DNA from: an uncultured Planctomycetota bacterium
GTDB lineage: Bacteria; Planctomycetota; Planctomycetia; Isosphaerales; Isosphaeraceae
Direction of reading: 5' to 3'
Assembly: GCA_963823665.1 (NCBI GenBank)
Contig: CAWGMQ010000006.1
Location: forward strand, 576,001 to 640,000
DNA length: 64,000 nucleotides
Shown: in pieces, positions 1,483-55,664 of the stretch
How positions within the stretch are numbered: position 1 is the first letter of the stretch
Layout of the letters: the number at the start of each line of letters is the position of its first letter
Translations under genes and position numbers: made by a program
Notes under the pieces: model-generated
What the model was told of the DNA's origin: nothing
Databases searched by the model: none
The model's input: the letters and a program-made list of their open reading frames with translations, nothing else

Positions 1483-1595
1483 GGGTGTCTGGAATGCGTG
1501 TTTTAGTGTCACCTGACAGGTGTCTCGGTTCCCCCCTCTGGGTTCCCCTCTGAGTTCCCCTGTCGGCTGCAGAGGGTGGGTGTCTGGGTTCCCCC
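1483..1595. repeat. Cluster of short GGTGTCT(C/G)G and GTTCCCC repeats (REP-like)
   Basis: GGTGTCTGG near 1484, GGTGTCTCGGTTCCCCC near 1519 and GGTGTCTGGGTTCCCCC near 1579, plus tandem GTTCCCC(CC)TCTG units at 1528-1563. Confidence 0.5.
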
Positions 1596-1721
1596 GCGAA
1601 GGAATGCAAGCTGGTCGGCGTAACGTTCCCCCGCGGGCGGTTGTTGTACCGACCGTGCCGGCGCCCTTCGCGCGAGGAGCGGATCGGAAGCGGCGGGGTC
1701 GGGTGACTTTTTCCTGGCCAT
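1595..1721 (-). pseudogene. Truncated N-terminus of MoxR/YehL-like AAA ATPase
   Basis: ATG lies 2 bp after the stop of the large gene. QQPPAGERYADQLAFL resembles the N-terminus of the AAA ATPase that follows this gene pair in actinobacterial DUF4132 operons (recalled). Similarity stops at the repeat cluster. Confidence 0.6.
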
Positions 1722-1723
1722 GC

Positions 1724-6782: not shown

Positions 6783-7708
6783 TCCGCACCTCCTTCCTGC
6801 TTCTCCACCTTGCGTTTCGCATAAATCTGCGAAGCCATCCGCACGCCTTCGCTGAAGGTGACGCGGCCCACCTCGGCGATCTTCACCGGCTTCTGGTCGC
6901 CGTCCACAAAAATCAACTCTCCGGTGTACGCCTCTGACTCGGGAGAATCGCTGCCGATCCAGTAGCGGGCCTCGATCGGACTGGCGTTCTCCCAGACCTT
7001 GCTGCACGCGTAACCGCCGCGCACCGGATAGCCGAGCCGCCGGCAGAGTGAGCTGGCAAAATTCAGTTGCTCAAACCGACCATTGCTGAAATCCATGATC
7101 TTTGATAGTTCTTGCTGCGGCTTCGTCGCGGCGAAGGTTGGGCGGAACATCTGCTCAATCGCTTGAGAGAACCCCATGTCGACGGCAATCTCGCGCAGCT
7201 CGTCGAGCCCGTCGATCAGTATCGGATGGGGGATCAATATCTGCACGGCAGCGATCCATTGCGTTTCGCCGTCGCGATCGATCACGCCAATGCCTTTCTT
7301 CGGGTCAACGTCGCGAAGCAGCCCGGTCTGTGTCGCATTGATCTTGCCGCTCGCATCGGCGGGGCTCACCACCAGGTTGCGCAGCATCTCGACCCAATCC
7401 CGATCAGACCAGACCGCCCGCACGACATCGCAAGGCACGGGAAGGGAGCGCAGCATCCACATCTCGACGCGGTGCAGACACTCGGTCCGATGGTCGGCGA
7501 GCCACTCGCAGAGCGCGGTGAGCTGCTCCGCGAGGGCCGACTCTTTCAGCTCTTTCGGAACCGATGCCAGCTTCTTACCCGCGGGGTTGCGGCAGATCAG
7601 CTTGCCGTTATCAATTGCGAGGGCGTAGTTGTTCTCAGCATCCAGCCAGGCGATCTCGTCGGCCGAGGGTTTCCCGGGCTGTTTGTCTGCTGTGCGCGAC
7701 TTGGCCAT
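6779..7708 (-). CDS. DUF4132-domain protein, copy A (YehI-like domain)
   Basis: AWLDAENNYALAI...GKKLASVPKELK...EWLADHRTEC...WMLRSLP...IPHPIL...IEQMFR...FSEGVR. ATGA coupling to the next gene. Confidence 0.75.
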   Translation of the reverse strand: MAKSRTADKQPGKPSADEIAWLDAENNYALAIDNGKLICRNPAGKKLASVPKELKESALAEQLTALCEWLADHRTECLHRVEMWMLRSLPVPCDVVRAVWSDRDWVEMLRNLVVSPADASGKINATQTGLLRDVDPKKGIGVIDRDGETQWIAAVQILIPHPILIDGLDELREIAVDMGFSQAIEQMFRPTFAATKPQQELSKIMDFSNGRFEQLNFASSLCRRLGYPVRGGYACSKVWENASPIEARYWIGSDSPESEAYTGELIFVDGDQKPVKIAEVGRVTFSEGVRMASQIYAKRKVEKQEGGAE

Positions 7709-7974
7709 GAGTAACTCCACGAAGTCGTTCACGGTGATCAAACAGGCTTTCGATCCCGAATGAAGCGATCGGTGTTGCGAATGGGTTTCGGGAACTGTAA
7801 AAAATGGCTGCTGTGTGGCCTCGGGTCTTGTCTCCGATCAGTAATTCCAGCCGCTCGGGCAATTCCCCAGGAGTATAATGGCGATGCTCGCGCGATTCCA
7901 CTTTGGGCCGAGAAGATCAGCACAGCGCGTTTCTCTTTCAATCCAGATTGCTCCTCTCCACGGCGAGGTGAACC

Positions 7975-33448: not shown

Positions 33449-36400
33449 TCAGGGCGTGTTCGGCCTGGGACTGCCGCCGAGGCAAGCCCGCAACGCGCTG
33501 GCCAGATGCGCGACGTTCGGCGGCTCGAGCAAAGTGCGGTGCTCCCCGCGCACTCGGATCACGTCGACCCCGCCCAGAGCGATGGCTTCCCATCCATTCG
33601 TCGAGTCGTGGGCGGATCGCGTGCAAGTGCGTTGAATGGCGGCCCGGAACAGGGTGATTCGCCCGGGGTAGCGGTCAAGGCTTTGGAGGTATCCCTCGGA
33701 AGAATGCGTTTCGGCAGCGCGAGGCTCCAGAAGCTGGGACCGGCGATCGATTCTTTGCCGCAGCTTCGCGCGAAGCGCGACCGCCGCGTATCGAAGCGTC
33801 TCGCCGGCGGACCGGTGGCACAGATTGACGATGTGCGCGAACAGCCACTCCGCACCGCCGGGGCGTCTCGGGTAGTTCGGCCCGTGCACGTCGAAGAGGG
33901 CGAGCAGGGCAACCGATTCGCCTTCGAGGACGAGGCGCCGTGCGACCTCCAGGGCGAGCAGACCGCCGCGCGAGTAGCCACCAAGATGATATGGCCCGCT
34001 TGGGAAGACGGCGCGTAGGTCGGAGAGGAATTGATCGGCTACCGCAGGGATGAGCTCGGCCATATCCTGGCTTGGTGGCAGATCGCCGAGCGACACTCCG
34101 TAGAACGGAAACGCGGGACCCATCATCCGGGCCAGAGCGGCTAGCCCCAGACCGTGCGCGAGGAACGCGCCCGCCGCGCCGGGAAAGCACACGAACGGCG
34201 GCGCCAGGACCTCCACGTCGTCTGCCCGGTTCATGCAGACGATCTGAGACGTCGGCGCGGCCTGTCGTCGTCGGATCACTGCGGCTAGCTGCTTGATCGT
34301 CGGCGCCTGGATGATGGCCGAAAGCGGTGGTGCGAATCCGAACCGCTGCTTGACTCGTGCGAACAAGCGCACGGCCAGTAGCGAGTGGCCGCCAATGGCG
34401 AAGAAGTCGTCCTCCACACCGAAGATCCGGCCGCGAAAGAACTCGCGCCAGAGCTCGAGGAGCCCCGCTTCGGTCAGGTCAACTGGGCGGGGCGTTGAGA
34501 CCGCCGCCGCGACCGGCGCAGTAACGATGGCGCGAACGGCGCGCCGGTCCACTTTTCCGCTCGTAGAAACTGGAATTGCGTCGAGCGTGACGAACGTCGA
34601 CGGGACCGAAGTTTCCGCCAGCTCGCTCGCGGCAAACGATCTGAGGGCGGCTTCTGTGAGCGGTGGAAACCCGTTCCGCGGGACGACGTACGCTGCCAGA
34701 GATGCGCCGCCTGCGGGATCTTCGATCGCGACGACCGCTGCGTCAGCCACACCAGGGTGCCGCCTGAGCGCCGCTTCGACTTCACCAGGTTCGACCCGCA
34801 CGCCCCGAACCTTGACCTGGTCGTCCAGCCGCCCGAGGAATTCGAGCGTTCCGTCGCCGCGCCAGCGCCCGCGGTCACCCGTACGATAAAGTCGCGCGCT
34901 TGGAGTGCCTGAGGCCGTTCCGGCTGCATCATCGAATGGGTCCGGCACGAACCGCTCCGCGGTCAGTTCGGGCCGGTTCAAGTAACCGCGCGCCACGCAC
35001 ACGCCTCCCAGGTACAGCTCGCCAGGCACACCGATCGGCTGAGGACGGCGCCGCTCGTCCAGCACATACACATGGGAATTTGCAATCGGACGTCCGATCG
35101 GGATCCGCTCCAGTCCAGGATCGGGCAGGCACTGGTAGTGCGTGACCTCCACAGCCGCCTCGGTGGGGCCGTACAGGTTGTGCAACTCGACCTGCGGAGA
35201 GAGCCGCTGGAAGAACTGGTCGCGCAAGCCGGCGGCCAACGGCTCGCCAATCGTGAAGACTCGCCGGAGTGCTGCACATGAGGGCGCAATCGGGTCGTCC
35301 AGGAACGGACCGAGCGCCGACGGGACGAAACCGCACACGGTCACGCCCGCATCTTTGAAAAGCCGAGCGAGATAGGATGGGTCACGGTGCCCTCCCGGCC
35401 GCGCGAGCACCAGTCTCGCGCCGACGATCAAAGGCCAGAACAACTCCCAGACGGACAGGTCAAAGGTGTAGGGAGTCTTCTGGGCGACTCGGTCTGATGG
35501 TACGAGCGGCAGAGCATGTTGCATCCAGAGGAGCATGTTGCAGACCGACCTGTGCTCGTTCATGACTCCTTTGGGCACGCCGGTCGAGCCGGACGTGTAG
35601 ATCACATAGGCAAGATCTCGCGGGGTGTTGACGGGAACTGGGTTTGTTTCAGGCCCGGGGCAGTCTTCGTCCCGGCCCGCAAGCGCGATGACGGGCACGG
35701 CGGGGTCCAGTTCCGCGGCCGGCCAAGCCAGATGCGCTTGTGTGACCACGGCGGCGGGCCGCGCGTCGTCTAGCAGAACCTTGAGCCGCGCCGCGGGCGT
35801 TACCGGGTCGATCGGCAGATAGGCCGCACCCGACTTCATGATGCCGAGTAGCGCGACGACCATATCCATCGATCGCTCGGCGATGACGGCCACTCGCAAG
35901 TTGGGACCGGCACCGACGGCCCGCACGTGATGAGCCAGCCGATTCGCGCGTCGATTCAGCTCGGCATAGGTAAGCTCGCGGGCTGCCACGGTGCCGTCGC
36001 CCTCCACGTCGGGAAGCACCACGGCGAGCGCGTCTGGCGACCGCGCGGCCTGCTCCTCGAATAGTCGGTGCGCACAGTCTCGAACGGCAAGTCGAGCGTC
36101 GTTGCGTTCCAGTCGCAAAGAACCTGGTTCCGCTCGACCCGCGTCAGAAGCTCCAGGTCGTCAATTGGCCGGTGGGGGTCAGCCGCGACCGCCTCGAGCA
36201 AAATTCGATACCACTGGACCAGGCGGCGCGCCGTTTCGCAGTCGAAGAGGTCGAGGCTGTAATCGAGTGAGCAGCAGAGTCCCTCAGTTGTTTCCCGGAG
36301 CTCGATCGACAGGTCGACGGACGTGACACCCGGATCGACCGCGAACGGACTGGCTGTGATCCCGGGAAACTCTGCCGCGCTTTCCGGCAAATTACGGAGC

Positions 36401-37597
36401 TGGAACAATATCTGGAAAAGCGGGGCGTGCGCGAGCGAACGCTCGGGCCTGAGCTCCTCGACCAGCTTCTCGAACGGAACGCTCGAGTGCGCCAGGGCCT
36501 CAAGCGCGCGCGTTCGGGTCTGGGCCAGCAGTGTCCGGAACGACATGCTCGGCTCAAGGACTGCGCGGATCGGCAGGGTGTTGATGAAGGGGCCGATCAA
36601 GTTCTCGAGAACCGGGTCGTCGCGGCAGGCGACCGGGCACCCGACGACGATGTCGAACGTGCCTGTGGAGCGGGCGAGCAGCGTCTGGAAAGCCGCCAGC
36701 AGGGTCATGAAGAGCGTGGCGCCCTCGCGCCGACCCAGTTCTTTCAAACTCCGGACCAGCGGCGTTTCGAACGTGGTGGTGATGCGGCCGGCCCGCTCGG
36801 TTCGCGTCGCGGGTCTGGGCCAGTCGGTGGTTAGCTCGAGCACTGGCGGTGCGCCCGCCATATACTCGCGCCAGAACGAAAACGCTTGCTCCAGCGTGTT
36901 GCCGGCAAACCGGTCTCGCTGGCGCGCCGCGAACTGCGCGAATTGCAACGGCGGATCAGGTAGTGGCGAATGCTCGCCGCGCAGGAACGCTCCGTAAATC
37001 GCCGCAAGCTCCCGCCGCAGAACAGTCGCCGACCAACCATCGAAGACAATATGATGTGCGGTCCAGAGCAAGACGTGGTCGGCATCGCCGAGCCGCAGCA
37101 GCATCCACCGGACCGGGAGTCCGTTCTCGAGATCGAACGGGCGCGCCAGTTCCTCCGCCGCCAGACGTCGGGCCTCGGTCTGCCGCGCGTCTTCTGGCAG
37201 ACTGCGCAGATCGACGACGGCGGAGGAAGCCTCCGGTGGTGCCAGAACGCGGCAGACTGGCCGGCCGTCGCTCGACGGGAAGCGGGTGCGAAGCACTTCG
37301 TGCCGCCTGAGCACCTCTGCCAGCGCGCGACCCATCGCGACAACGTCGAGCCGCCCGAAGAGCCGTAAGTTGTGCGCCCGGATATTCACCCTGCTGCCTG
37401 GATCGAACTGCTCGAGGAGCCAGAACTGCTCCTGCGCGAATGATAGTGCAGACGCACCGGGGCGCTCGACGCAGTTGGTCGCAGCGACCGTCGGCCCCGA
37501 GGCGCGTGCGCGTGCGCAGACGCTCTGCCAGCATCGCTTGCTTCGCAGGCGAGAGCCGGCGCTGCCGGCCATCCATATTATCGCGTGAAGTTGTCAA
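33449..37597 (-). CDS. NRPS C-A-PCP-TE (frameshifts near 37450 and 36085)
   Basis: N-terminal LSPAKQAML. C domain HHIVFDG. A domain YTSGSTGVPKG, YGPTE, YRTGD. PCP GGHSL. TE GYSRG. Confidence 0.88.
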
Positions 37598-37630
37598 AGT
37601 ATGAAATCTAAAACGGTTCCGGGCTGCGAT

Positions 37631-39445
37631 TCATTCCGGCTCGGGGAGAGCCTCGATCGCGCTCAACACGAGGTCTTCGACCACAAGCGCCTGATCGGCG
37701 AGTACGGGCGTGCGAAAGATCGTCTCCAGCGGTAGCGTCACATTGAAGGCTACGTTGAGCCTCGCGATGACCCGCGCGGCCAGGAGTGAGTCGCCTCCGA
37801 CGGCGAAGAAGTTGTCGAGTGCGCCCGCGCGGTGATTCGCCAGGACTTCGGTCCAGGCTCTTGCTACGGTTTCCTCGAACACGCCCCGAGGCGTTACGAA
37901 TTCGGCCCGGAGTAGGTGGCCCAGCTCACGATGAAGTCCGATCCGGCGTGGTTTGCCCGTCGGCCCTTTGGGGATTTCGAGTACGATCAGGATCTGGGTC
38001 GGCACCTTGTGCACGGCCAGGCGCTCGAAGGCTTTTCGCCTGAGGTCAGCTTCTGGAACTGAGCTTCCTTCGCGCAGGACCACGGCCGTGATCACGTCCT
38101 CCCCGAGGCTCGGGTGCGGCACCGCGAACGTAACCGCCTGGTCAACAGCGGGATGCTCCAGGATCGCATCATCGATTTCACGCGGCGTGATCTTCTCTCC
38201 GCCGCGGTTGATCAGCTCTTTGATGCGGCCGGCGAGATGAAAGTAGCCGTCGGCATCGAACGATCCCAGGTCCCCCGTGCGGAACCAGCCGTTCTTGAAC
38301 GCGGAGTGATTTGCCTCAGGATTGTCCTCGTAGCCCGAAGTCACGTTCGGCCCGCGGATAACGATCTCGCCGATCTGGCCGGGGCCGACCAGACGATCCG
38401 ATTCGTCCATGACGGCAACCTCGGGCCCGGCCGCGGGCCCGACTGAGCCAGCTTTGCGCTTGGAGGGCGGTAGCGGATTGCTGCACACTTGATGCGACGC
38501 CTCCGTCATGCCGTACGACTCGAGCACAGGAACACCCAGGACTCGCTCCAGCTCATGCAGGACCACCGGGGGCAGAGGCGCGGACGACGACCGGACCAGC
38601 CGCAAGCTGTGTTTCTGCGCGGCAGCCGGCGACCGTGCGGCCTCTGCAAGGACGGCCTGATGGACGGTCGGTACGGCCGTGTACCACGTTGCGTCGAACT
38701 CCTGCAACCAGCCGAAGAACTGCGACCCGTCGATTCCCGGCATGCAGACCACTCCGGCGGCGGCGGCCACAGAGGCCAGAACCGCGCCGATCAGGCCGTG
38801 GATATGGAAGAGCGGCATCACATTCAGGCAGCGGTCGCCGGGGGTCAGTGCCAGCGTCGACTGGATGTGAGAGGCGGAGGCCGTCACGTTCCGTTGAGTC
38901 AACAGGACGCGCTTGGGCTTTGCCGTGGTTCCGGACGTATGCAGAACGAGCGCCACGTCGTCTGCGCCTGCGAGTCCCGGCGACGCGGCCGCGGGGCCCT
39001 CGGGGCCCTCGAGGTTGAAGGCGCCGGCTTGGCCCCCCATCTCCGGTACGAGCTCGATGACCGTGATCCCGATCCGTCTCGCAGCCTCCCGCGCGGGCGT
39101 CTGGGCACCCTGGCGCACCACCAAGGCGCGGGCATTCAGGTCGGCCAGGTAGAATTCAAATTCGGATTGCGTGTATTCAGGATTGAGGGGGCAGAATGTG
39201 GCCCCGGAGCTGATCAGAAGGAACGAAGCTGCCAGTTCCGCTCCGTTGTCCAGGACCACGGCGACCCGATCGTTGCGGCAGACACCCAGCCGATTCAATT
39301 GTCGAACCACCGCGTCGCGGCGGCCGGGGATTTCACAGTATCGCAGAGGCGAAGCGGCGGGCGCGAGTAGGGCGCATCCCTGCGGATTTCGCCGGGCTGC
39401 GTCGGCCAGGAGCGCTGGTATCGAGCCAGGAATCGCGTCGCTCAT
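37631..39445 (-). CDS. Acyl-CoA ligase (oxalate-CoA-ligase-like) fused to a carrier protein
   Basis: LHTSGTTAKPK, MPLFHIHG, RSSSA, YGMTEASHQ, FRTGD, GRIKELINRGGEK; PCP GGDSL. Confidence 0.85.
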   Translation of the reverse strand: MSDAIPGSIPALLADAARRNPQGCALLAPAASPLRYCEIPGRRDAVVRQLNRLGVCRNDRVAVVLDNGAELAASFLLISSGATFCPLNPEYTQSEFEFYLADLNARALVVRQGAQTPAREAARRIGITVIELVPEMGGQAGAFNLEGPEGPAAASPGLAGADDVALVLHTSGTTAKPKRVLLTQRNVTASASHIQSTLALTPGDRCLNVMPLFHIHGLIGAVLASVAAAAGVVCMPGIDGSQFFGWLQEFDATWYTAVPTVHQAVLAEAARSPAAAQKHSLRLVRSSSAPLPPVVLHELERVLGVPVLESYGMTEASHQVCSNPLPPSKRKAGSVGPAAGPEVAVMDESDRLVGPGQIGEIVIRGPNVTSGYEDNPEANHSAFKNGWFRTGDLGSFDADGYFHLAGRIKELINRGGEKITPREIDDAILEHPAVDQAVTFAVPHPSLGEDVITAVVLREGSSVPEADLRRKAFERLAVHKVPTQILIVLEIPKGPTGKPRRIGLHRELGHLLRAEFVTPRGVFEETVARAWTEVLANHRAGALDNFFAVGGDSLLAARVIARLNVAFNVTLPLETIFRTPVLADQALVVEDLVLSAIEALPEPE

Positions 39446-39709
39446 CTTATCCTGCCACTCCGGATCGGGCTGCGCATCGTGGCACGCTCGGTTCAGGGCT
39501 CATCCAAAATCGGCGATTCGGCTCGTTGGCTTCCCCGTACGCGGCGATCGGTTGACGAGGCGCTTCTGAGTAGAGCCTAGCCTGAGCGACGAAACGTGTC
39601 CAGAATGTAACGAGGTGCAGCATCGCCGCATCGGATCGAAGAACCAGCGTGCGACATGTCTCGTTCGCTGGAAACCACACGCACCTGCAATGCGTTCGAG
39701 AGGTGGCCG

Positions 39710-40105
39710 ATAAGCTTTTTCGCCGTTCGGAACCGGCGCTTGCGGCGTGGTTTTGGGCTCTTGTGTCCGGAGCCACTGGTGCTGCGCGCTCTGCTTGCGA
39801 CGGTGGCTGTCGACGTCGGACAGGTGATCCGCGCGGTCGATCCTCAGTTGATCGGTGTGAATGCCACATGGTGGGACACGAACCTCAACACGAGCCAGAC
39901 GCGCCAGTCGGAGCGACCACGCCGATCGGCGACGGCCAGGAATGGAACAGCTCGACCAGTGAGTGGGAGACGGTCAACTGGCAGAACGCGGGCTACTGGG
40001 CGAGCCTGCGCGCGGCCAGTCCGCTCGCGGTTGACGACGGACTCAACTCCCTGCGCCTGGGACGTGCCCAACCGTTCGGCTTCCACTATTTCGAGGTTGG
40101 CAACG
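39710..40105 (+). pseudogene. Relic of a secreted clan-A-like glycoside hydrolase gene
   Basis: RBS GAGG followed by ATA (probable mutated start). Degenerate planctomycete motif RNRRLRR..PEPLVLRALLA, then LIGVNATWWD, an out-of-frame jump at ~39900, then GYWASLRAA..DDGLN..FHYFEVGN where it ends. Confidence 0.65.
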
Positions 40106-41479
40106 ATGAAAACAATTATCGAGCCATTCAAAATCAAAATGGTCGAGCCGATCCGGCTCACGACGCCGGAAGAGCGTGAAGCGATCATCCGATCGGCCCA
40201 CTTCAATCCGTTTCGGATTCGGGCCGAGGACGTGCTCATCGACCTCTTGACCGACAGCGGCACCTCGGCGATGAGCGACGAGCAGTGGGCGGGGATGCTG
40301 CGTGCGGATGAGTCGTACGCCGGAGCGCGAAGCTGGTATCGGTTCGAATCGGTGCTCCTCGAACTGACCGGGATGCCTCATATTCTGCCGACGCATCAGG
40401 GGCGTGCCAGCGAGCGCATTCTTTTCGAGCTGATCGGCGGGCCGGGAAAAGTCATCCCAAGCAACAATCACTTCGATACAACACGGGCAAACATCGAACA
40501 TTCCGGCGCAGAGGCAGTCGACCTGGTGATCGACGAGGGACTCGAACCGCGAGCGCGGCATCCATTCAAGGGGAACCTGGACCCAAACAAGCTCGAGCGG
40601 CTGATCGCCAGCGTTGGGCCCGAGAGAATCCCGGTTTGCATGCTGACCGTCACCGACAACAGCGGCGGCGGGCAGCCCGTGAGTCTGGAGAACATCAGGG
40701 CAGTGCGCGCCGTATGTCATCGCCACGGTATCCCACTCTTCCTCGATGCGTGCCGATTCGCCGAGAACGCCTACCTCATCAAGATTCGAGAAGCTGGCCA
40801 GTCACACCGAACGGCTCGAGAGATTGCCCAGGAAATGTTCTCACTGGCTGACGGTGCGACGATCAGCGCCAAGAAAGACGGGCTGGTGAACACCGGTGGC
40901 GTGCTCTTGATTCGAGACAATGCACTGGCCCGCCGCGCCAATGATCTCTTGATTCTGACCGAGGGTTTCCTCACGTACGGCGGGCTGTCGGGCCGCGACC
41001 TGGAGGCCATGGCTCAAGGATTCAAAGAGGTCCTCGACGAGGACTACCTTCAGTATCGGATCCGTAGCATCGCCTATCTGGGTGAGCACCTCCTGGCCGC
41101 CGGAGTTCCGATCATCGAGCCTCCCGGCGGGCATGCGATCTACATTGATGCGGCCGCGGTGAGCCCTCATATTCCTCGGGAACAATTCCCCGGCCAGGCA
41201 CTACTGGTCGCGCTTTACCGGCATGCGGGGATTCGCGCCGTCGAGATCGGCAGCGTCATGTTCGGCGGCCGCGGCGACGGATCTGGCGAGCGATCGCATG
41301 CACGTTTGGAGCTCGTGCGCCTGGCCGTTCCTCGTCGGGTCTATACTCAAAGCCACATCGATTATGTTGTCGAGGCGGTTGTCGAAGTTTATCGCAAACG
41401 TGAAACGCTTCGAGGCCTCCGGATTGCCGAGGCGCCCTCGACGCTCCGGCATTTCACGGCGAAATTTGAAGAGGTTTAG
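40106..41479 (+). CDS. tnaA: Tryptophanase
   Basis: IEPFKIKMVEPI, IDLLTDSGT, THQGR and PLP-Lys SAKKD. C-terminal LRHFTAKF has His as in TnaA (tyrosine phenol-lyase has Phe). Confidence 0.85.
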   Translation: MKTIIEPFKIKMVEPIRLTTPEEREAIIRSAHFNPFRIRAEDVLIDLLTDSGTSAMSDEQWAGMLRADESYAGARSWYRFESVLLELTGMPHILPTHQGRASERILFELIGGPGKVIPSNNHFDTTRANIEHSGAEAVDLVIDEGLEPRARHPFKGNLDPNKLERLIASVGPERIPVCMLTVTDNSGGGQPVSLENIRAVRAVCHRHGIPLFLDACRFAENAYLIKIREAGQSHRTAREIAQEMFSLADGATISAKKDGLVNTGGVLLIRDNALARRANDLLILTEGFLTYGGLSGRDLEAMAQGFKEVLDEDYLQYRIRSIAYLGEHLLAAGVPIIEPPGGHAIYIDAAAVSPHIPREQFPGQALLVALYRHAGIRAVEIGSVMFGGRGDGSGERSHARLELVRLAVPRRVYTQSHIDYVVEAVVEVYRKRETLRGLRIAEAPSTLRHFTAKFEEV

Positions 41480-41501: not shown

Positions 41502-43388
41502 TCAACTGCTCCGTCCAGCCACGTCCCAGACTTTCTGTTCGCCGAGTTCTTCAAGGCCCTTGAGGGTGACCAATCTCGGGCAGCCGTCGCGATAGCGGAA
41601 GCGGCCGCGAACCTCGTCATACGTGCGGCGGCTGATGCACGGGAAGCCGGGTAGGGCGGAGCTTTCGAGTCGGGCGCCTAAGTTCACGGTAGTGCCGATC
41701 GCAGTGTAGTCCATCAAGTCATAAGTTCCCATATTGCCGAGGACGGCATCGCCGGTACTGACGCCGATACGGATTGCAAATGGCTGTAAACCGAGAATGA
41801 CGCGCGGCTCGTTGTGCTCTTCGATATCACGGCAGAGATCAAGCGACGCGGAAACCGCGCGGAGGGCGTGCTGCTGCCCGCGTAGGATGGCCATGAAGCC
41901 GTCGCCGCGAAAGGCGGTGACGAGCGCGTCGTGTTTCCGCAGCGTGGCGACGGCGTTGGCCATCATCTGATTGAGAGTGATCATCACGACCTCGGGCGCG
42001 GTGTCGAGTGCGTAGGATGTCGACCCTTTGAGATCGAGGAACAGAACGCTCAAGGGCTCGGTCTGGCCCGAGATGAGCGATTCGGTGTCTTCCGGCATGC
42101 CCCGGCCGCGCACGCGGCGGAAGACTCGTGCCCAGTAGGCCTCGGCATTGACGCTCTTGAGCTCGTCGCTGACACCGCGCACGAGATGGGCGCGGCGACA
42201 GGATTCGGCGAGGTCAAGAGCGGCGAGGTACTCGCGCGTCACCAGCGGACGCGGCTCGCCCGCGGCTCGAAATACGCGGGCGAGCTCCCACTGAGTGCGG
42301 GCCTCTTCCGCTTGCTCCCGGCTCGCGGCAAAGTGGTTCAGGGCGGCGCGGAGCTTCTGCTTGGACTCGTCAATCTGCCCTTGACGGCGCCGGATCATTC
42401 CCCAGGTGCGATTGATATGAGCAAGGCCCTCCGCAAAGTCGGCCGACCGGAAGATCTCCTCGGCTATCTGCGCCTCGGCTTCGGCCGCTTCGACCTGGTT
42501 TTCCGCAAGGTGCAGCAAGGCACGGTCCTTCCTGGAATAACCCTCGCTGATGGGCCAGCGGCACGCGTTTGTGCGGATGCTTGCGTCGAGCCAGCCGGCC
42601 GAGTCGATCCATCGCTCGCGTGCCTCGCTCGTGCGCCCGGCCAGGGTGTCGCGGTTGCCGCGCTCGAGGGCGATCTGCCCCAGGAAATTCTGCATGAGCG
42701 CCTCACCGCGCTCGTCGCGAGTGTTCTGCGCGATTCTCAAATCATCGAGGAAGCATTTCTCTGCCTCGTCGAGATAGCCCCAGTCGAGATGGAGCCGGCC
42801 GAGGTTGCCGAAGCTCACAGCAAGCCCCGTCTGGTCGTTCCAGATCTTCTTGCAGGCGATTGCCTGGCGAAAGAACTCCTCGGCGGCGTGGAAATTATCC
42901 CGTGCGGCGTAGATCATGCCGAACGTATCGAGGATGCGCCCGCTGCCGTAGTGGTCCTTCCCGAGCAAGCGAAGGGCCTGGCGCAGCTCCGACAATGAAC
43001 GATCCAGGTCGCTCGCGTGCAAGAAGTTGGCGCCGCGGATATGGGCCACGCCCGCTTGAAGGAGGGTATCTTCGGGGGCCGGGTCGATCGACGCGAGAAG
43101 CTGCTCCGCATCCTTGAAGCGGCGCTCGCGCATGGCGACAAACGCGAGGATGAACCGCGACCACTTCTGTGCCCTCGGGCCCTCGCCTGCATGCTCCACA
43201 AGGCGACGGGCTTCATCATGGGCACCGCGCTCCGCGGCCATCCAGCCCGCGAAGAAAAGCAACTCGTTCTTGCGCTGCGCATCCGGTGTGGCGGCGATCT
43301 CCTCGTCCAACTTCTGGAGGGCCATCTCCCAGCCGTACTGGTCGAGCAGCGCACGAATTCTGTCGCCGGCCTCGGGTTGGTTGAGCAT
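41502..43388 (-). CDS. TPR-repeat protein with C-terminal class III nucleotidyl cyclase
   Basis: TPR helices, then VLFLDLKGST, FRGDG, IRIGVSTG and DYTAIGTTVNLGARLE. Confidence 0.9.
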   Translation of the reverse strand: MLNQPEAGDRIRALLDQYGWEMALQKLDEEIAATPDAQRKNELLFFAGWMAAERGAHDEARRLVEHAGEGPRAQKWSRFILAFVAMRERRFKDAEQLLASIDPAPEDTLLQAGVAHIRGANFLHASDLDRSLSELRQALRLLGKDHYGSGRILDTFGMIYAARDNFHAAEEFFRQAIACKKIWNDQTGLAVSFGNLGRLHLDWGYLDEAEKCFLDDLRIAQNTRDERGEALMQNFLGQIALERGNRDTLAGRTSEARERWIDSAGWLDASIRTNACRWPISEGYSRKDRALLHLAENQVEAAEAEAQIAEEIFRSADFAEGLAHINRTWGMIRRRQGQIDESKQKLRAALNHFAASREQAEEARTQWELARVFRAAGEPRPLVTREYLAALDLAESCRRAHLVRGVSDELKSVNAEAYWARVFRRVRGRGMPEDTESLISGQTEPLSVLFLDLKGSTSYALDTAPEVVMITLNQMMANAVATLRKHDALVTAFRGDGFMAILRGQQHALRAVSASLDLCRDIEEHNEPRVILGLQPFAIRIGVSTGDAVLGNMGTYDLMDYTAIGTTVNLGARLESSALPGFPCISRRTYDEVRGRFRYRDGCPRLVTLKGLEELGEQKVWDVAGRSS

Positions 43389-43391
43389 GGT

Positions 43392-45612
43392 TCAGCTTGT
43401 TCCAAATCTCAGGAAGATCGACTCGATCGCATCGGCGGCGAGCAGCGTGCCCGATCGCGGCGCGTTGACGATGGTGAATCCATGTGCTCGTCCGTCGTAC
43501 CAAGGGTCGGCGTTATCGTACCCGGGCCGGGAGGGCTTTCTGGAACCAGTTACAGGATCAACCTGGCGATCGTCCGCTCCGAAGAGTTCGCTGCGGTGCT
43601 CCGACTCAGCGCGGTCGAGCAGTTCGCCGAGGCCTCGGAGCGAGGCGCCGCTCGCGCCCGTCACGGAGAGAATGCAATGGCGAACCTCATGCCGGGATTC
43701 GGAGACGAAGACTGAAAGAGCGATGAACCCTTCGCCGTCGGGCGATCGGTCGCGATCGCTGCGAGCCCAGTCCTTGAAGAAGATGCAGCGATCGGGATCG
43801 TCGGCGTTCTGAACATCGCGCACGAGAAGCGTGTCAACCGCGATTCGTCCGCCGAACTGGCCCGGGAGGCTCAGGCGGTTGATGCGGGCTCCTGTGCCAG
43901 GGTCTGCCAGCTTGCGGTGGTAACGCTCGATGTCGCCGAGCACCTCCTGGCGATCGGACTCGGTGATCAAGTCGCTGCACGCGAAGGCGTCGACGGAAGG
44001 GAGCGCGACCGCCTGGCTAAGGCTACGCTCGAGCGAGAATGCGATGAGCGCCAGGCCCTGCCGCACGCATGCCTGCCACAGCTCGTGGCCGGTTGGCCGG
44101 CCCTGCGCGCTTCGCGATGGACCAACTGCATATAGGCCGCATAAGGAGAGAATGGATTGAAGAGCGAATGGCCGATTGATCCCTCGTCGATCTTGTCCGC
44201 GTAGCGGACCAGGGCTTCGGCGCCGAGCGGCAGCTCGCCAGTGGTGAGTAACGCGTTTGCGAGCCAGGCTGCGACGATACAGTCAAAATCCGGCGCCTCG
44301 GGCAGCACGATCGTGAACGGTGCATATCGATCGCGACTGGCCGCGGCCGCCGCGGTGACGAGATGGCGGTTCGACAACACGAGCCGGGCCGTCGAGCCGC
44401 CATACGAGTGAACCTGGTGCTGGTCGATCACGCCGGGACGGAGGTCGTTGCCGATGCCCAGGAACAGCCGGTCCGGCGCGGCGCCGAGGGTGGTGCGGGG
44501 GAGCCGGCGGCGGCGAAGGCGAAGCGGATGGTGTTTTCGTGGACGAGAGGCGATGGTTCGCGCTTGACCGCGGCTGGGGGATACTTGCCGGCCGGGACGG
44601 TCGGCCGTTCGAGGCGTTCCTCGATGTAGTCGTCAAGGAAAGCTGCGAACTGCTCCATGCTCTGGTGACGATCTGCTCGATCTCGAGCGATCGCCTTCAG
44701 GCAGATGGAATCGAGCGCGAGATCGATTTCCGGGCAGTGGGTTGAAGGTGGCTGCGGTGGGATCGCGTGCCGCGCCGCTATGTATTGCGCTTCCGAGCTC
44801 TCGAACGGCCGCTGGCCGGAGAGCAGCTTGTAGAGGACACATCCCAATGCGTAGATATCGGTTCTCGGACCGATTTCCTCGGACTTGCCGAGGAGTTGCT
44901 CGGGAGACATGTAGGGACGAGTGCCGAGCCGCTCGTTCGTTGTGGAAATGCGGCTCTGCTCATCGTCCAGCAGCAGGGCGAGGCCGAAGTCGACAACGAC
45001 TGGGTTTCCCTCGGGTGTGACGATGATGTTGGAGGGTTTCAAATCGCGGTGGATGACGCCTTCCTTGTGGGCCGCGGCCATTGCGCGGGCGATGTCGCGC
45101 ACCATTGCCGCGGCCTCTATCGGCGTGAACGCCTTGAATTCGGACAGTGGTGCTCCCCGAACGTAGCGCAACACGAGGTAATGGGTGGCGTCGAATTCAC
45201 CGACGTCGAGTACCCAGCAAAGGCCTGAGTGCACGAGCCTGGCTGCTGCGCGGGCCTCGCGATAGAATCGCGCTTGCATCTTAGGTTCAGCGAAAATGTC
45301 GGGGCGGGGAATCTTGAGCGCGACGTTGATGTCGAGCTTGGAATCGACGGCAAGGTAGACCTGCCCCATGCCGCCGCCGCCCAGGAGTTTGAGGAGGCGG
45401 TATCGGCCGAAGTCGCGGGGGAATGGGGGGGTGGACTTCGATGGAAGATCAGGCGGCAGCGGTTTGGCGCCGGGGTGCCGTCGGTCGTTGGGATCCTGAT
45501 ATGAGGAAATCTCGGGGAGGGAGTGCTCTGGAGGGCGTGCGCTGCCTGGCCCGGCGGAGCTGCTTCGAGGGTCCTTGCCTGGCGGGTTTTCGTCAGATGC
45601 GGGAAGGTTCAT
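43392..45612 (-). CDS. Ser/Thr kinase fused to a DHH-like putative phosphoesterase domain (frameshifts near 44490 and 44100)
   Basis: GGGGMG, VALK, HRDLKPSN, VDFG and YMSPE. Joined frames give LFLGIGNDLRPGVIDQHQ...PDFDC...DKIDEG...PWYDGR..FTIVNAPRSGT. Confidence 0.7.
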
Positions 45613-45910: not shown

Positions 45911-47950
45911 ATGCGTCGTTTTCTTTTGTCGGTCACGTGTCTCTTCGGAGCGAGTTCCGCCATCGCGGGCAACGCGGACGATGCGCCAGCCGTGAAATCG
46001 CCGGTTGTCGCGACCTCGCCGGACGGTCGCATCCGGGCGGAGGTCTCCGTCGACGTGCCCGGTGGGCAAGCTTCGATTCCTCACATCAGCGTCTCGTTCC
46101 GGGGCCGCGCGGTCGTGCTACCATCCCAACTCGGCGTCAATCTCGGCGACGGGACCCGTCTTGGCGGAGGCTCGATCGTCGAGGGCGTGACCACGCGATC
46201 GTTCGACGAGACGTACACCCAATTCCCCGGCAAGCGCAGCCGCGTTGTCGACCACGGCTCCGAAGTCATCGTCAAGCTCCAGGAGGTTGCGGCACCGGCG
46301 CGGCGATGGGAAGTGATTGTGCGCGCCTATGACGATGGGGCGGCGTTTCGTTATCGGTTTCCGGCCCAGGAGGGTTGGACGCGGCTGGAGATCTCCGGCG
46401 AACGGACGCGATTTCGAGTTCCCAAGGACGCGGTGGGCTATGCCCTACCGCTCAATTCATTCACAACGTCGCACGAAGCTCGTTATGAGAAAAAGCCAGT
46501 TGCGGAGATTCCGAAGGAGTGGCTCATCGGGCTGCCGCTGCTCCTCGAGCTGCCTGGTACCGGATGGTTGGCGCTGGCGGAAGCTGACCTCACCGATTAC
46601 GCGGGCCTTTACCTGGGGCGCGATGTCGGCGAGGGCACGACCCTGATTGGCAAGCTCTCTCCTTTGCCGAGAGAGCCGAAAATCGCGGTGCGGGCCGCGC
46701 TGCCGCACCAATCGCCCTGGCGCGTGTTGATGATCGCCGACAAGTTGGAGCGGCTGGTCGAGTCGGACATCATCCTGAATCTCAGCACCCCCTGCGCTAT
46801 CGCCGACACCTCGTGGATCAAGCCGGGCAAGACGACGTTCCCGTGGTGGAACGGATTCTACGAGAAAAACGTGCCGTTCAAGATGGGGTTGAACACGGCC
46901 ACCGCCAAGTATTACATCGACTTCTGCGCCGAAGCCGGCATTCCGTATCACTCGCTCGACGGCCTGGACAACATCGCGTGGTACGGTGGGCCGATCGTGC
47001 CGTACGAGGGGGCCAACATCACCAGGGGAATTGACGGGCTCGACCTCCAGGAGGTGATTCGCCACGCGAAGGAAAAGGGCGTCAAGCTTAGGCTGTGGAT
47101 GCACTGGAGAGCAGCGGAGACGCACATGGAACGCGCGTTCCCGCTCTATCGCGCGTGGGGTATCGAGGGCGTGATGCTCGACTTCATGGACCGGGACGAC
47201 CAGGAGATGGTTCGGTTCCTGCGCCGGGCCCTCAGGTTAGCCGCGGACAACCGATTGACGGTCACATTGCACGGCGTGGGGGCGCCGACTGGCCTCGAGC
47301 GCACCTACCCGAACTTGTTGACCAGCGAGGCAGTGATGAACCTGGAGTACGACAAATGGGACAAGCTCGGGATTCCGCCGGAGCACGAAGTGACCGTGCC
47401 GTTTACGCGGATGCTGGCTGGCCCGCTCGACTTTCATCAGGGTTCGCTTCGGGGTGTGCCGATCAGCGAATTCCGGCCACGAAACGACGCCCCGCTGGTG
47501 ATGGGAACGCCGAGCCGGATGCTGGCTTCGTACGTCGTGTTTCAAAACCACTTGCCGATGGTGGCGGACTATCCGTCGGTTTATCGCGGGCACCCTGCCC
47601 TGCCCGTCCTCGCGGCGATCCCCACGACGTGGGACGACACTCGCTGCTTGGCGGGCTCGGTGGGAGAATACGTTGTCATCGCCCGGCGGCATGGGAGCCA
47701 GTGGTGGATCGGAGCGATGAATGATCGAAAGCGGCGAGAACTGTCGATCCCGTTCAGCTTCCTTGGACGTGGAAAGTTTCGCGCCGAAATTTATTCCGAC
47801 GATCCTGACGGAAAGACGGCGCATCGGCTGAGCCGGCGATCAGAGGAAATCACGCCTCAGGAGGCGATCAAGGTTTCGCTGGGATCGGCGGACGGATGTT
47901 TGATTCACTTGACGACACTGCCGGGGACGGCTCCAGGGATCGACCGGTGA
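45911..47950 (+). CDS. Glycoside hydrolase family 97
   Basis: Signal peptide; RAYDDG.AFRY, SPWRV, WIKPGK, KYYIDF, LDFMDRDDQ, RTYPN, PFTRMLAGPLDF and PTTWDDT. Confidence 0.92.
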   Translation: MRRFLLSVTCLFGASSAIAGNADDAPAVKSPVVATSPDGRIRAEVSVDVPGGQASIPHISVSFRGRAVVLPSQLGVNLGDGTRLGGGSIVEGVTTRSFDETYTQFPGKRSRVVDHGSEVIVKLQEVAAPARRWEVIVRAYDDGAAFRYRFPAQEGWTRLEISGERTRFRVPKDAVGYALPLNSFTTSHEARYEKKPVAEIPKEWLIGLPLLLELPGTGWLALAEADLTDYAGLYLGRDVGEGTTLIGKLSPLPREPKIAVRAALPHQSPWRVLMIADKLERLVESDIILNLSTPCAIADTSWIKPGKTTFPWWNGFYEKNVPFKMGLNTATAKYYIDFCAEAGIPYHSLDGLDNIAWYGGPIVPYEGANITRGIDGLDLQEVIRHAKEKGVKLRLWMHWRAAETHMERAFPLYRAWGIEGVMLDFMDRDDQEMVRFLRRALRLAADNRLTVTLHGVGAPTGLERTYPNLLTSEAVMNLEYDKWDKLGIPPEHEVTVPFTRMLAGPLDFHQGSLRGVPISEFRPRNDAPLVMGTPSRMLASYVVFQNHLPMVADYPSVYRGHPALPVLAAIPTTWDDTRCLAGSVGEYVVIARRHGSQWWIGAMNDRKRRELSIPFSFLGRGKFRAEIYSDDPDGKTAHRLSRRSEEITPQEAIKVSLGSADGCLIHLTTLPGTAPGIDR

Positions 47951-47966: not shown

Positions 47967-48323
47967 TCAATGGGCGTGACCTTCCACGTACTCCTTCAGA
48001 AGAACTGCCGAGTTGTGCTCCTCGTCGCTGGCGGCATAGATGAACGTCACGGTTTCCGCCCGGCACCTTTTGCGCAACTCGCCGACCGCGGTCTTGTTCT
48101 GGTCGAGCTCGGCCGCATAGCGCTTCTTGAACTCGTTCCACTTGGCGATGTCATGGCTATACCAGCGGCGCAATTCCTGGCTGGGGGCCACGTCCTTCAG
48201 CCAGCGGTCAATGGCGGCACGCTCTTTGGTCACGCCGCGCGGCCAGAGGCGCTCGACCAGGATGCGAAGGCCGTCATCGGGTGCGGCTTCGTCATAGGCA
48301 CGCTTCAAGCGGATCTTTGGCAT
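47967..48323 (-). CDS. DUF488 (YeaO-like) protein
   Basis: IRLKRAY..DDGLRILVERLWPRGV.KE..WLKDVAPS.ELRRWY.H. Confidence 0.9.
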   Translation of the reverse strand: MPKIRLKRAYDEAAPDDGLRILVERLWPRGVTKERAAIDRWLKDVAPSQELRRWYSHDIAKWNEFKKRYAAELDQNKTAVGELRKRCRAETVTFIYAASDEEHNSAVLLKEYVEGHAH

Positions 48324-48904
48324 TCGTGCTCCCCGTTCGGTCCTTGCTTCCCGTCGATCGACGGGCAGGCGGCCGCTAGAGCCTCGGACCATGTGCGCTC
48401 GCCTTCGTTGTGCTTCCGCACACTTTACCCTCGCCGACGCCCAGGGACGCGCGTCTGGGCAATGAGCTGCGTGCAAAGAAACGTCTACGATCCCTTGCAA
48501 CGGCATAATGAACGCATGTGGCGTATTAGTGGACAAATGGAACCAGGAAGCCAAGGGCCGGAATAAATGTTACACTCTCTCGTCACGTTTGCGGCCGCGG
48601 CTGTTTGCAACAGGCGACAGACTGGCGGCGGCAATGCGTACGGGTCTTTGCCTCGTCTTTTCTTCTCGGTCCGGTTTGGCCGGGCCGGGTGCCCGCCTCA
48701 GCCGCATTGAAATCCGAACAATACGGGATCAAGCTCTGCGGCGCAACACGTTAATCCAACATAGCTTTCTGACAATCGCGCAAGCTGCCCCGGATATTCC
48801 CTGTCCTGGGTAACCACGGAGGCTTCCCTGCGTCGCCACTCTTGCACGCGGGGGATCGTGCAGGATGCGCCCCTTGAGAGTACACCCGCACGAGGAGACT
48901 GCCA

Positions 48905-49915
48905 GTGCTTTGGTTTGCTTGCTGGATGTTCGCACTCTCCACCTATGAACGTGGAGCCGCCGAACCGACTGATTGGATGATACCGCCAGGCTGGACCGCC
49001 AATCCGTGGGGCCCCGCTGCAACCGAGGCACGCCAGAACGGAACACTCCCGCCGATTCCGATGACGGACGTGATGGCGAAATGGGACCATTGGGGACGAA
49101 GCGTCCTCCATGACGGAGATATCGTGTTCCGGCTGGGCGACGCGCGGACGATGCTCGGGTTTCTGCCGCTCTCCCGGTTTATTGCACATGCCACCGGCAG
49201 CAAGTACTCCCACACCGGAATCATCGCCTTGGAGGATGGCGTTCCCATCGTCTATGACTGTTCGTCGTGGGGGATCCAGCGTCAGCCGTTTGCTGTCTGG
49301 ATGCTGGATTCGATCGGGTCGTTCGGGGTCAAGCGGATCAAGCCGCACTTGAAAAACCATGTTGCCGGCGTGCTCGGCTATTGCCGGAAGGTCTACGCGG
49401 ACCAGGTGCCGTTTGACGACGAGTTCCGGATCGACGATTCCAGGCTGTATTGCGTCGAGATGACGGAGAAGGCATTCCGCTCACAGGGCCTGGCGCTCTC
49501 GGAACCGGTGTGCATCGGCGACTGGGAAAACCTGGTTCAGTATCCGCTCACGGCGATGGGAATCGTGCGCTGTTCGCGGTGGTTTGTGAAAAACGCAATC
49601 TCGCTGGACCAACCCACGTATGTGCCGGGGAACGACCACCAGGGAATCTGGGCTTCGCCGCTGCTCGACACGGTCTACCCGTACCCAAAGGCGGGCAAGA
49701 ACACGGTCAACTCGGCGCCCGCCGGGCCACCGCCGGCGCTGTGCGTCAAGGGCGACATCGCAGTGACGGCCTTCGTCGTCCGCGAGATGGGCCGATCGTA
49801 CTCGCAGCTCCCCTTGCGGCTGATTGGCGAGTTGCTCACGAAGGTGCCGGCGCAAGATACGTCGACGCGAGTCGCTGCCGGCACGGATCGCTCGAGCGCG
49901 ACCGAGGTGGAATGA
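48905..49915 (+). CDS. Permuted papain-like N1pC/P60 enzyme (YiiX/YebB-like)
   Basis: GDIVFR, YSHTGI, FD..F..DDSRLYCVE. Confidence 0.8.
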   Translation: MLWFACWMFALSTYERGAAEPTDWMIPPGWTANPWGPAATEARQNGTLPPIPMTDVMAKWDHWGRSVLHDGDIVFRLGDARTMLGFLPLSRFIAHATGSKYSHTGIIALEDGVPIVYDCSSWGIQRQPFAVWMLDSIGSFGVKRIKPHLKNHVAGVLGYCRKVYADQVPFDDEFRIDDSRLYCVEMTEKAFRSQGLALSEPVCIGDWENLVQYPLTAMGIVRCSRWFVKNAISLDQPTYVPGNDHQGIWASPLLDTVYPYPKAGKNTVNSAPAGPPPALCVKGDIAVTAFVVREMGRSYSQLPLRLIGELLTKVPAQDTSTRVAAGTDRSSATEVE

Positions 49916-49946
49916 CCTGGCGTTTGCCCGGTTGCACGTACGCTGC

Positions 49947-51032
49947 TCAATAGCGGAGGACGGCCGCGATACCTTGATGCAGGTCAAGGACGCCGGTGTC
50001 GTAGAAATAGACTTCACCGCCGTCGGCGAGAACTTTCTCGATGACCTCGTCGACGGCGTCGTCAAGTGCTGCCGCACCGCTGCCGGTGTAACGCAGCAGG
50101 CGATCGCCGTCGGGGGAGACGTCGGCAGGATGCTCGAAGCTGGTCTCGACCAGAAGAGTCTGGCAGCGCTTGTCGAAAGCCGCGCGCCACACCTGGTCGA
50201 TGCCGGACGCGTGCCGGTTAGCGCTGACCGCCTGGCCGAGCCGGACGAGCGCGCGAGTTCTGACCAGAGTCATTCCTGCCTTGAAGACCGGCCAGACGAG
50301 CTTGCCGAGCTTGCTCGGGCTCGGGTCGTCGTGGCTGCCCGCCACGAGACCGACGATGGCATCGGGATCCTTGGTGATTTCCTGGTAGAACGCCAGGTAG
50401 CGATCGACCCCGACGACGACCACGGGAAGATGGTCTTCCTTCTGGAAAGTCGCGAGGGCGTCATCCACCTGCCTGAAGAACTGGCGATGTGACTCATCGC
50501 GCACGCCCGACCGATTGATCCCCTGCCCGCCCGGCAGGCGCGATGCTCCGCCGGGACCGGTGTGAACCATGGGAAATGGTTTATCCGTAGTTTCGGTCAG
50601 CACGTTGGTCGTGGCCTCGAAGAGCCGGGTTGGCTTTTCGGTCAGGACGAGCACCCGGTAGCGCGGCGCACGATTGAGGGTGAAGACCAGGTCGCGCGTG
50701 GCGAATGAGCCATCGACTGAAACACGCGGTTTCACCTTGAAAGGCAGATAAATCGCCGTGGCGTCGTCTTTGCTCGCGAAAAGGGCCAGGCCGTCGAGCG
50801 TGTGTTTCCAGTCGACGCGATCAACGAGCTTGCTCAGGTGTTGCACGACGGACGCGACTTCCCGCTTCTTGAACTCGCGATGCAGGCGATCGATTGCCTT
50901 CGTCAAGAGATTCTTGACGACGATTCGATCGCGCTTGTTGGCTGGGCTCGAGCGGTAAGTGGGAGCCAGCAACGAGACCGACGGATATTCATTGTGGCTC
51001 TGAAGACGCTTCAATTCACTGCGACAGATCAT
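49947..51032 (-). CDS. Bacterial archaeo-eukaryotic release factor-like protein (baeRF3-like)
   Basis: YPSVSLLAPT, GLALFAS, FATRDL, YRVLVL, FFRQVD, LDDAVDEVIEKVL..GG and IAAVLRY. Confidence 0.75.
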   Translation of the reverse strand: MICRSELKRLQSHNEYPSVSLLAPTYRSSPANKRDRIVVKNLLTKAIDRLHREFKKREVASVVQHLSKLVDRVDWKHTLDGLALFASKDDATAIYLPFKVKPRVSVDGSFATRDLVFTLNRAPRYRVLVLTEKPTRLFEATTNVLTETTDKPFPMVHTGPGGASRLPGGQGINRSGVRDESHRQFFRQVDDALATFQKEDHLPVVVVGVDRYLAFYQEITKDPDAIVGLVAGSHDDPSPSKLGKLVWPVFKAGMTLVRTRALVRLGQAVSANRHASGIDQVWRAAFDKRCQTLLVETSFEHPADVSPDGDRLLRYTGSGAAALDDAVDEVIEKVLADGGEVYFYDTGVLDLHQGIAAVLRY

Positions 51033-55225: not shown

Positions 55226-55664
55226 AACGAACCCTGAACGAAGTGAGGGCGAGAAAGTTCCGAGGATTCGGGCATGTGTCCTGCCACAGGACGACATTTG
55301 GTCCGGATGAGCCTTCCGAAAGATATGTCCGATCGCGCTTTTCAATGTTCGCGTTTCTCGGAAGGCGAGAGGAGATATTAGACCGGCAGCTACCTGCGAG
55401 TCCCTTCGTGCGAAATCCATCCGATCGGCGTGAGTTCAGCTCTCCATGATGGTCCGCCGCACGATCCTGGCCCGTTTGGTGCAGGATCGCCTTGCGTCGG
55501 ATCATACCCAAACAAACAGTCGTTGATCCGCTCGGCGCGGGGTGCGGTGCGCCCAACGCCAACACAGAGCGTCCGCGCGTCTTCCGGCTCCCGGGTGGGA
55601 GAACGCGCGCCAGTTCCGCACCGTCGGCGCAGATACATAGATATAAACATCTAGGAGATATATC

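Follow-up and report, generated by a model that had tools for sequence, protein, structure and literature searches.

The window analysed here, a 64,000-nucleotide stretch of an uncultured Planctomycetota soil bacterium of the Isosphaeraceae (contig CAWGMQ010000006.1, positions 576,001 to 640,000), carries on its minus strand a gene joining a Ser/Thr kinase to a DHH/DHHA1 domain of rearranged motif order, followed directly by a gene for a TPR-class III nucleotide cyclase (Table 1). We propose, as a tentative reading that falls a little short of an even chance, that this pair is the two-gene form of a cyclase-DHH module in which the TPR-cyclase makes a cyclic nucleotide and the degenerate DHH domain binds it and would thereby switch the kinase. 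The TPR arm would gate the cyclase, whose product would be a cyclic nucleotide with the base left open; intact members of the DHH family would hydrolyse that product, thus placing writer and eraser in one chain; and the window's clade would have converted the eraser into a reader, with the degenerate DHH domain binding the nucleotide and controlling the attached kinase, and with the likely output being the phosphorylation of proteins as part of a stress or conflict response. The pair itself is one arrangement of a mobile module and not a fixed operon.

The three overlapping open reading frames (ORFs) of the kinase-DHH region are one gene, as an earlier note on this DNA had held in joining them into a kinase of about 740 residues with an extra domain. 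The homologue P0006 (740 aa) tiles all three frames at 79, 69, and 89% identity, and the corresponding locus of the same genus, L001, has a single 735-aa ORF followed 3 bp on by a 628-aa cyclase. The same spacing is found in the window, where the kinase-DHH stop at 43392 and the cyclase ATG at 43388 leave 3 bases between them, just as the earlier note had read it. The kinase motifs GGGGMG, ALK, HRDLKPSN, DFG, and SPE are all intact, as in Hanks-type Ser/Thr kinases. A search among 8000 candidate longer proteins gave 259 relatives of the last piece of the gene. Of the 120 listed among these 259 matches, 104 have a kinase domain and 9 a TIR domain, while Pfam recognises no domain in the other 7. 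The relatives for which a taxon was given are Planctomycetota (Isosphaeraceae and Gemmataceae).

According to the fold model, the extra domain is of the DHH/DHHA1 type, in agreement with the DHH-like kinase fusion first proposed. The window's two DHH pieces gave no match in the Pfam, PADLOC, and NCBIfam profile scans, and solved structures, when searched by sequence using the DHH alignment, returned one irrelevant match only (E 0.09), but 19 of 21 aligned relatives match Pfam DHH weakly (best E 1.2e-4). With the AlphaFold model of the domain of the L001 orthologue (predicted local distance difference test score 86), Foldseek was weak (best E 2e-3), but the VIA comparison placed PggH on top (Z 9.8, root-mean-square deviation 4.5, 248 residues aligned), then RecJ-Cdc45 (Z 8.7) and NrN (9lqc, Z 8.6), with the DHH/DHHA1 superfamily filling the list. 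DHH motifs I to IV are all found at the family level, in the order II (LDVGN), DHH (III), I (HxxPDxD), and IV instead of the usual I-II-III-IV. Because PggH can be aligned only from residue 30 and NrN only from residue 33, and because positions 2-38 of Pfam DHH fall on residues 75-112 of P0343, we consider the strand and helix of motif I to have been relocated. The phosphoesterases PggH, NrnA, GdpP, and Rv2837c thus share the two-domain fold with the window's domain, but in them motif I precedes DHH, whereas in this family it follows DHH, and the DHHA1 part carries NxDPWYDG and no GGGH, unlike theirs. NrN of B. fragilis, with its DHH at 85-87, fits the usual order.

The window's own DHH domain is probably folded but inactive, to judge from its aligned residues. 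The active site of NrnA comprises D24, D26, D80, D156, H20, H103, and H104, with D80, H103, and H20 among the metal-binding residues (PMC5593865). All seven equivalents are kept in 83 of 122 aligned rows, whereas the window has G, Q, and P in place of the D80, H103, and H20 equivalents, so that three of the seven metal-site residues are gone and the complete two-metal site of an active DHH phosphoesterase (four Asp and three His, as in NrnA) is lacking. The same G/Q/P pattern occurs in 11 rows, the window's own included. The degenerate clade of 17 proteins nevertheless retains 79 of the 90 columns in which conservation elsewhere reaches 95% or more, although the clade was chosen by its D-to-G change and the loss of that column is therefore circular. 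Given the three lost residues, "reader" fits the window's clade better than "eraser", so that of the two roles initially left open for this copy the first is the likelier.

The second gene encodes a class III cyclase by its fold match, its two metal-site Asp residues, and its Asn/Arg pair; D452 and D496 presumably bind metal and N569 and R573 presumably stabilise the transition state. In adenylate cyclases, a Lys at the position equivalent to A492 selects adenine, together with an Asp/Thr residue. The window's cyclase has A492 where CyaB of the P. aeruginosa type has Lys, and keeps T562; across 119 homologues, A, G, T, S, and V predominate at this position, with Lys outside the five commonest residues. 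The window's cyclase thus departs from a canonical adenylate cyclase and, since the adenine-selecting lysine is missing, its product may be other than cyclic AMP (cAMP). Our literature searches gave no citable paper on the adenine-selecting role of this Lys.

Evidence that cyclase and DHH belong together comes from single-chain proteins. We found 15 cyclase-DHH fusion sequences (6 representatives, 4 loci, and 5 others; three close kin), and in P0399-P0401 the profile of the window's TPR-cyclase family matches from end to end, over positions 1-623 (E ~1e-110), taking up the N-terminal two thirds of the protein, and is followed by the DHH domain. These three proteins share 26-30% identity with the window's cyclase and the family motif GNxGxYxKMDYTA, and their fused cyclases carry the canonical Lys. 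The catalytic residues of both cyclase and DHH are invariant in all nine aligned fusions, and the full-length fusions support a writer/eraser link. At the genome level, 7 of 121 family genomes have the DHH gene (a lower bound, few candidates per genome having been scored), 6 the TPR-cyclase, and 5 both (0.35 expected), these five coming from three genera and not being independent. The two genes are adjacent in three of the five (G000, which is the window's genome, G429, and G446), in both orders, and between L001 and L004 the order is swapped while adjacency is kept. The cluster of the closest cyclase has members on contigs equal in length to those of P0005, P0006, and P0034, so that among these close kin the contigs are probably shared. 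The linkage claimed in the earlier note is supported by these fusions and by the co-occurrence.

Several other observations weigh against our reading, and with them the self-contained two-gene system originally described is, as a fixed arrangement, not supported. In a neighbour survey of 85 DHH loci, grouped in 67 clusters at 85% identity of which 37 have at least 5 kb of flank, a separate cyclase neighbour was found in only 2 of the 37 clusters and a fused one in 4, the commonest neighbour being a HEPN-like gene (11 clusters). G425 and G426 hold DHH and cyclase on different contigs, and G430, which is 96% complete, has the DHH gene and no match to the cyclase query. In a second family, that of G800, 211 genomes gave DHH in 6, cyclase in 12, and both in 3, never adjacent, and the DHH gene was found in none of 14 cyclase loci fetched from that family, several of the stretches being short. 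Adjacency is thus seen in 3 of 5 genomes with both genes in one family and in 0 of 3 in the other. DHH enzymes, moreover, act on many substrates. On the favourable side, the tree (FastTree with SH-like support only, on 157 of 179 rows, 22 having been excluded for short or split coverage) groups the window's DHH with kinase and TIR fusions (SH 100) and puts the cyclase fusions elsewhere; because of this separation, the sequences suggest that the cyclase-DHH link arose more than once by repeated pairing.

Table 1. Positions of the pair, its parts, and its flanking genes in the window.
Feature	Position	Strand	Basis or remarks
ORF 1 of kinase-DHH gene	45612-44428	minus	
ORF 2 (open frame) of kinase-DHH gene	44536-43970	minus	
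ORF 3 of kinase-DHH gene	44150-43392	minus	
Ser/Thr kinase + rearranged DHH/DHHA1 gene, 740 aa	43392..45612	minus	Homologue tiling; two single-base gaps
Hanks-type Ser/Thr kinase domain	44620..45402	minus	Pfam Pkinase, E 1.8e-41
Rearranged DHH + DHHA1 domain, ~380 aa	43395..44532	minus	Signatures FKDWAR and NxDPWYDG
Degenerate metal site	44282..44458	minus	Motif II D->G (44458-44456); DHH->DQH (44425-44417); motif I HxxPDxD->PxxPDFD (44302-44282)
Break 1, one base short	44484..44489	minus	Comparison with L001; read contig
Break 2, one base short	44104..44108	minus	Comparison with L001; related strain's contig
TPR-class III nucleotide cyclase, 628 aa	41502..43388	minus	Pfam TPR_12, E 1.2e-13; Guanylate_cyc, E 4e-15
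Cyclase domain	41505..42065	minus	A492 codon 41915-41913; D452, D496, N569, R573 kept
Beta-eliminating lyase (tryptophanase/tyrosine phenol-lyase type)	39656..41479	plus	Flank, convergent; also in L001
GH97 glycosidase	45911..47950	plus	Flank, divergent; absent at this place in L001

Much of this evidence could also mean that the two genes are relict neighbours, drawn from a loose pool of shuffling planctomycete signalling and conflict genes and no longer acting on each other, the real partner of the DHH domain being another signal source such as HEPN-like/STAND or kinase-WD40 proteins. We consider this unlikely, though by no means negligible: HEPN-like neighbours outnumber the cyclase ones (11 vs. 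6 of 37 clusters), the genes lie apart in G425 and G426 and are never adjacent in the second family, and many of the 174 cyclase homologues are fused to a kinase of their own. However, full-length TPR-cyclase-DHH fusions exist, adjacency has survived the swap of gene order between L001 and L004, with the 3-bp spacing kept in L001, and a HEPN-like gene, though looked for, did not turn up in the window. The HEPN-like helical domain is unannotated and tentatively named after HEPN, a helical fold with an Rx4-6H motif. It is N-terminal in kinase-WD40, kinase-TPR, and STAND proteins (L003:9735-12557, L034, L039, L095, L097, L124, and others), with RNxxxxHG invariant in 11 cases and the HEPN profile matching one member only, weakly (E 0.006; E 0.0047).

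A third explanation, which we regard as somewhat more improbable again, is that cyclase and DHH serve in trans as writer and partly hydrolytic eraser for a redox operon regulated by cyclic nucleoside monophosphates (cNMPs), the nucleotide being read by the operon's cNMP-binding Fe-S protein. This operon, which besides the cNMP-binding Fe-S protein encodes a NuoF-like protein, a cytochrome c, and a membrane protein, lies next to the cyclase gene, the DHH gene, or both at L004, L006/L031, L030, L035, L085, L087, and L115. A cNMP-binding ferredoxin lies within 5 kb of DHH in 6 of the 37 clusters (L004 and two cyclase-DHH fusions are among the six), its gene stands directly upstream of the TPR-cyclase in G469, and the operon is present in the window's genome. 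But the operon is widespread (46 of 121 family genomes), the DHH gene occurs at none of 19 operon loci (20 kb fetched) and a cyclase at 6, in the window's genome a separate GAF-cyclase is found about 12 kb from the operon, and the window's DHH has lost the three metal-site residues. The operon's cNMP-binding protein could plausibly be the receptor in other lineages, while for the window's lineage it stands as a rival. In the window's genome the operon is on another contig (G000:C5:680000-697500, L093), where the Fe-S protein combines 2Fe-2S/4Fe-4S and cNMP-binding domains and the GAF-cyclase has Asp at the base-selecting position; at L115:3867-6479, a RelA/SpoT-type nucleotidyltransferase-TPR-RyR protein converges on the cNMP-ferredoxin and cyclase-DHH genes.

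The two breaks in the kinase-DHH frame are most likely assembly errors, given that a read contig restores the base at the first and a relative's contig is in frame at the second. Compared with L001, the window is exactly one base short at about 44489 and again at about 44107, both of them single bases within short runs, and 2221 + 2 bases make 740 codons plus a stop. The extra base at break 1 is present in a short-read contig that matches the window over 147/147 bases, extends just 9 bases beyond the break, and has the source sample as its possible origin, while break 2 is read in frame by the contig of a related strain (4 differences in 57). The read sets X1-X4 are contigs holding less than one fifth of the sampled words, and therefore provide no evidence on habitat or expression. 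That the kinase-DHH gene is a true pseudogene beside a cyclase functional on its own, as two assembled frameshifts not bridged with at least 31 bases on both sides by any read set could indicate, is very improbable in view of these two contigs, the short runs, the excess of synonymous over amino-acid changes against L001 (66 vs. 38 in the DHHA1 piece), and the same kind of breakage in a non-ribosomal peptide synthetase (NRPS) gene at 33449-37572 of the window and in the L004 cyclase and L007 of similar assemblies. The cyclase shows a comparable excess against L001 (162 vs. 90).

Returning to the proposed two-gene cyclase-DHH module, its closest known counterparts each differ from it. The DHH enzyme NrN of SAM-AMP type III CRISPR systems turns over a second messenger (PMC10600005) and is found beside or fused to CorA, an NrN-CorA fusion having been published for A. 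butzleri; the window's family is fused to CRISPR-type CorA in 34 of its best 150 representatives. NrN has cas/corA neighbours, whereas the window has neither; the relative L052 has both cas10 and corA. Membership of the window's DHH gene in the NrN group was rejected, no cas10 or corA being present among the 31 window ORFs scanned. Pycsar likewise places a possible receptor-effector beside a class III cyclase whose base-selecting position is non-canonical, but with a cNMP-binding transmembrane (TM) or TIR effector where the window has a TPR arm and a kinase, and Pycsar membership was also rejected for lack of an adjacent cNMP-binding TM or TIR effector. PycC profiles match the window's cyclase at E 1e-15 over the generic cyclase domain only, and among solved structures its closest relatives are class III cyclases of the ordinary kind, with the Pycsar-type PycC 7r65 coming last (E 6e-4). 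GGDEF-EAL and RelA/SpoT proteins are bifunctional synthase/hydrolases of nucleotide signalling whose degenerate eraser domains have been reused as receptors; they keep writer and eraser in one chain, like the fused relatives described here, but the folds and the messenger differ. The NTP-dependent ternary conflict systems have similarly variable effector fusions, including kinase, TIR, and cNMP cyclase (PMC7159879), and relatives of the window's DHH are fused to TCAD9, NACHT-TIR, and HD-CE; no vWA, MoxR, or VMAP genes were seen in the window. That DHH can be fused to CorA is, broadly, already known. For the rearranged order, the fusions with cyclases, and the degenerate clade linked to kinases, we found no published description in the literature searched: the main text of PMC7159879 has no occurrence of DHH or CorA and that of PMC6546367 none of DHH, and the searches gave no paper on a class III cyclase-DHH pairing, although an earlier mention may exist.

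The rearranged DHH domain extends far beyond this locus. When 1.84 billion representatives were searched with its profile, 1166 matched at E 0.001, and the stricter thresholds of 1e-10 and 1e-30 left 803 and 409. Since this profile contains some kinase tail, the weakest matches may be kinase-only; about 800 clusters carry the domain and are covered by no Pfam, NCBIfam, or PADLOC model, a gap likely explained by the rearranged motif order, which standard profiles miss. Local profiles on the best 150 representatives labelled 34 with CorA, 36 with kinase, 17 with TIR (2 of them with both), 6 with cyclase, and 1 with a HEPN-like domain, leaving 58 without label, while Pfam on 31 of these 150 added TIR-NACHT, HD-CE, TCAD9, and HTH as partners. 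CorA is fused in 6 of the 37 neighbour clusters, and the CRISPR-type CorA profiles of PADLOC match all four CorA-type fusions tested. Occurrence is patchy, with at least 3 of 401 phylum genomes, at least 6 of 401 class genomes, and at least 7 of 121 family genomes, the window's genome being counted in each; both non-self matches among the phylum genomes are cyclase-DHH fusions. No relative of the domain was found in the viral contigs, plasmids, or phages searched, and a fold search of viral models returned distant DHH proteins only. The ESM Atlas pointed to two unnamed clusters, one bacterial and one viral, and to DUF6687, but at a recognition value of 2153, under the threshold of the tool, so that these matches serve as a lead only.

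Among the CorA fusions, a rearranged-DHH-CorA protein of 911 aa is encoded at L052:425-9695 (identical to L053) between the Cas10, RAMP, and Cas6 genes of a type III-B CRISPR operon; one member of its cluster is labelled Syntrophomonadaceae. In SAM-AMP systems the same operon slot is taken by NrN, DEDD, or SAM lyase (PMC10600005, PMC11229360), and by analogy this fusion is a candidate further eraser for SAM-AMP-type signalling. Other DHH-CorA fusions have no cas genes in the stretches examined (L063, L065, L066/L068, L069, L070, L073, L076, L078) and often adjoin HEPN-like or STAND-TPR genes, which makes them candidate CRISPR-free CorA systems. At L041:2435-10348, an HD-CE-DHH-TIR gene is flanked by an HD-domain gene and by a Cas_APE2256 (CARF-like)-HD-CE gene, and L086 contains a restriction-modification cluster. 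Because of this company (CRISPR, CorA, TIR, NACHT/STAND, HEPN-like, and, at L086, restriction-modification), a defence role of the family is suggested by analogy. For the pair itself, the defence-island enrichment that had been thought worth looking for did not appear: a scan of the 31 window ORFs gave no defence island around it, and that candidate was rejected. Profiles of named anti-phage systems gave generic kinase and cyclase matches only, with none for the DHH pieces; the kinase matches in PADLOC and NCBIfam were equally generic, and the NCBIfam scores for full kinase systems were all below cut-off. No system-specific profile thus rose above its cut-off, consistent with the initial impression that the pair belongs to no named system.

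The pair lies between opposite-strand genes, as had been noted, but these are a metabolic lyase and a GH97 glycosidase and not strictly housekeeping genes. A scan near the gene starts found no promoter or terminator signal above chance, and the guanine-plus-cytosine (GC) content is flat across the pair, giving no sign of recent transfer. Further out, the DUF488, permuted papain-like (C92), and baeRF family 3 genes at 47967-51032 are syntenic with L001, and GH97 is inserted between DUF488 and the kinase in the window only. The minus-strand region 33449-39445 holds a small NRPS-like cluster (AMP-binding-PCP; condensation; AMP-binding-PCP-thioesterase), in which the condensation ORF overlaps the adenylation ORF in a different frame, likely through another single-base assembly gap. 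A low-GC stretch at 513-7837 (minus) has DUF4132 in two separate ORFs and an unannotated ORF of 1152 aa, possibly all one broken large gene, and at 55647-62444 (plus) a secreted-type protein of 2266 aa carries PA14 and Ig-like repeats; its Ntox44 match is short and weak (24 residues, E 2e-6) and probably spurious.

In a wider sense, and as a possibility that we ourselves hold to be doubtful, the rearranged DHH family could act widely in bacterial immunity and conflict as a so far unrecognised off-switch and receptor of general use for nucleotide second messengers. In fusions with class III cyclases it would form a new class of cyclic-nucleotide phosphodiesterases; CorA-type type III CRISPR systems, and likewise the CRISPR-free CorA systems that lie next to HEPN/STAND genes, would have in it one more eraser; and in the window it would be a dead receptor coupling a non-cAMP cyclic nucleotide directly to a Ser/Thr kinase. 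For many bacteria it is unclear how class III cyclase signals are shut off, and the messengers that act on CorA-type effectors are not yet all known (PMC11229360). One unannotated domain is here found fused to cyclases, CorA, TIR, NACHT, and kinases. Single-chain proteins such as P0334 and P0399-P0401 allow product and substrate to be tested together, and the window's clade adds to this family a likely pseudo-enzyme receptor on a kinase, together with a cyclase that has an unusual base pocket.

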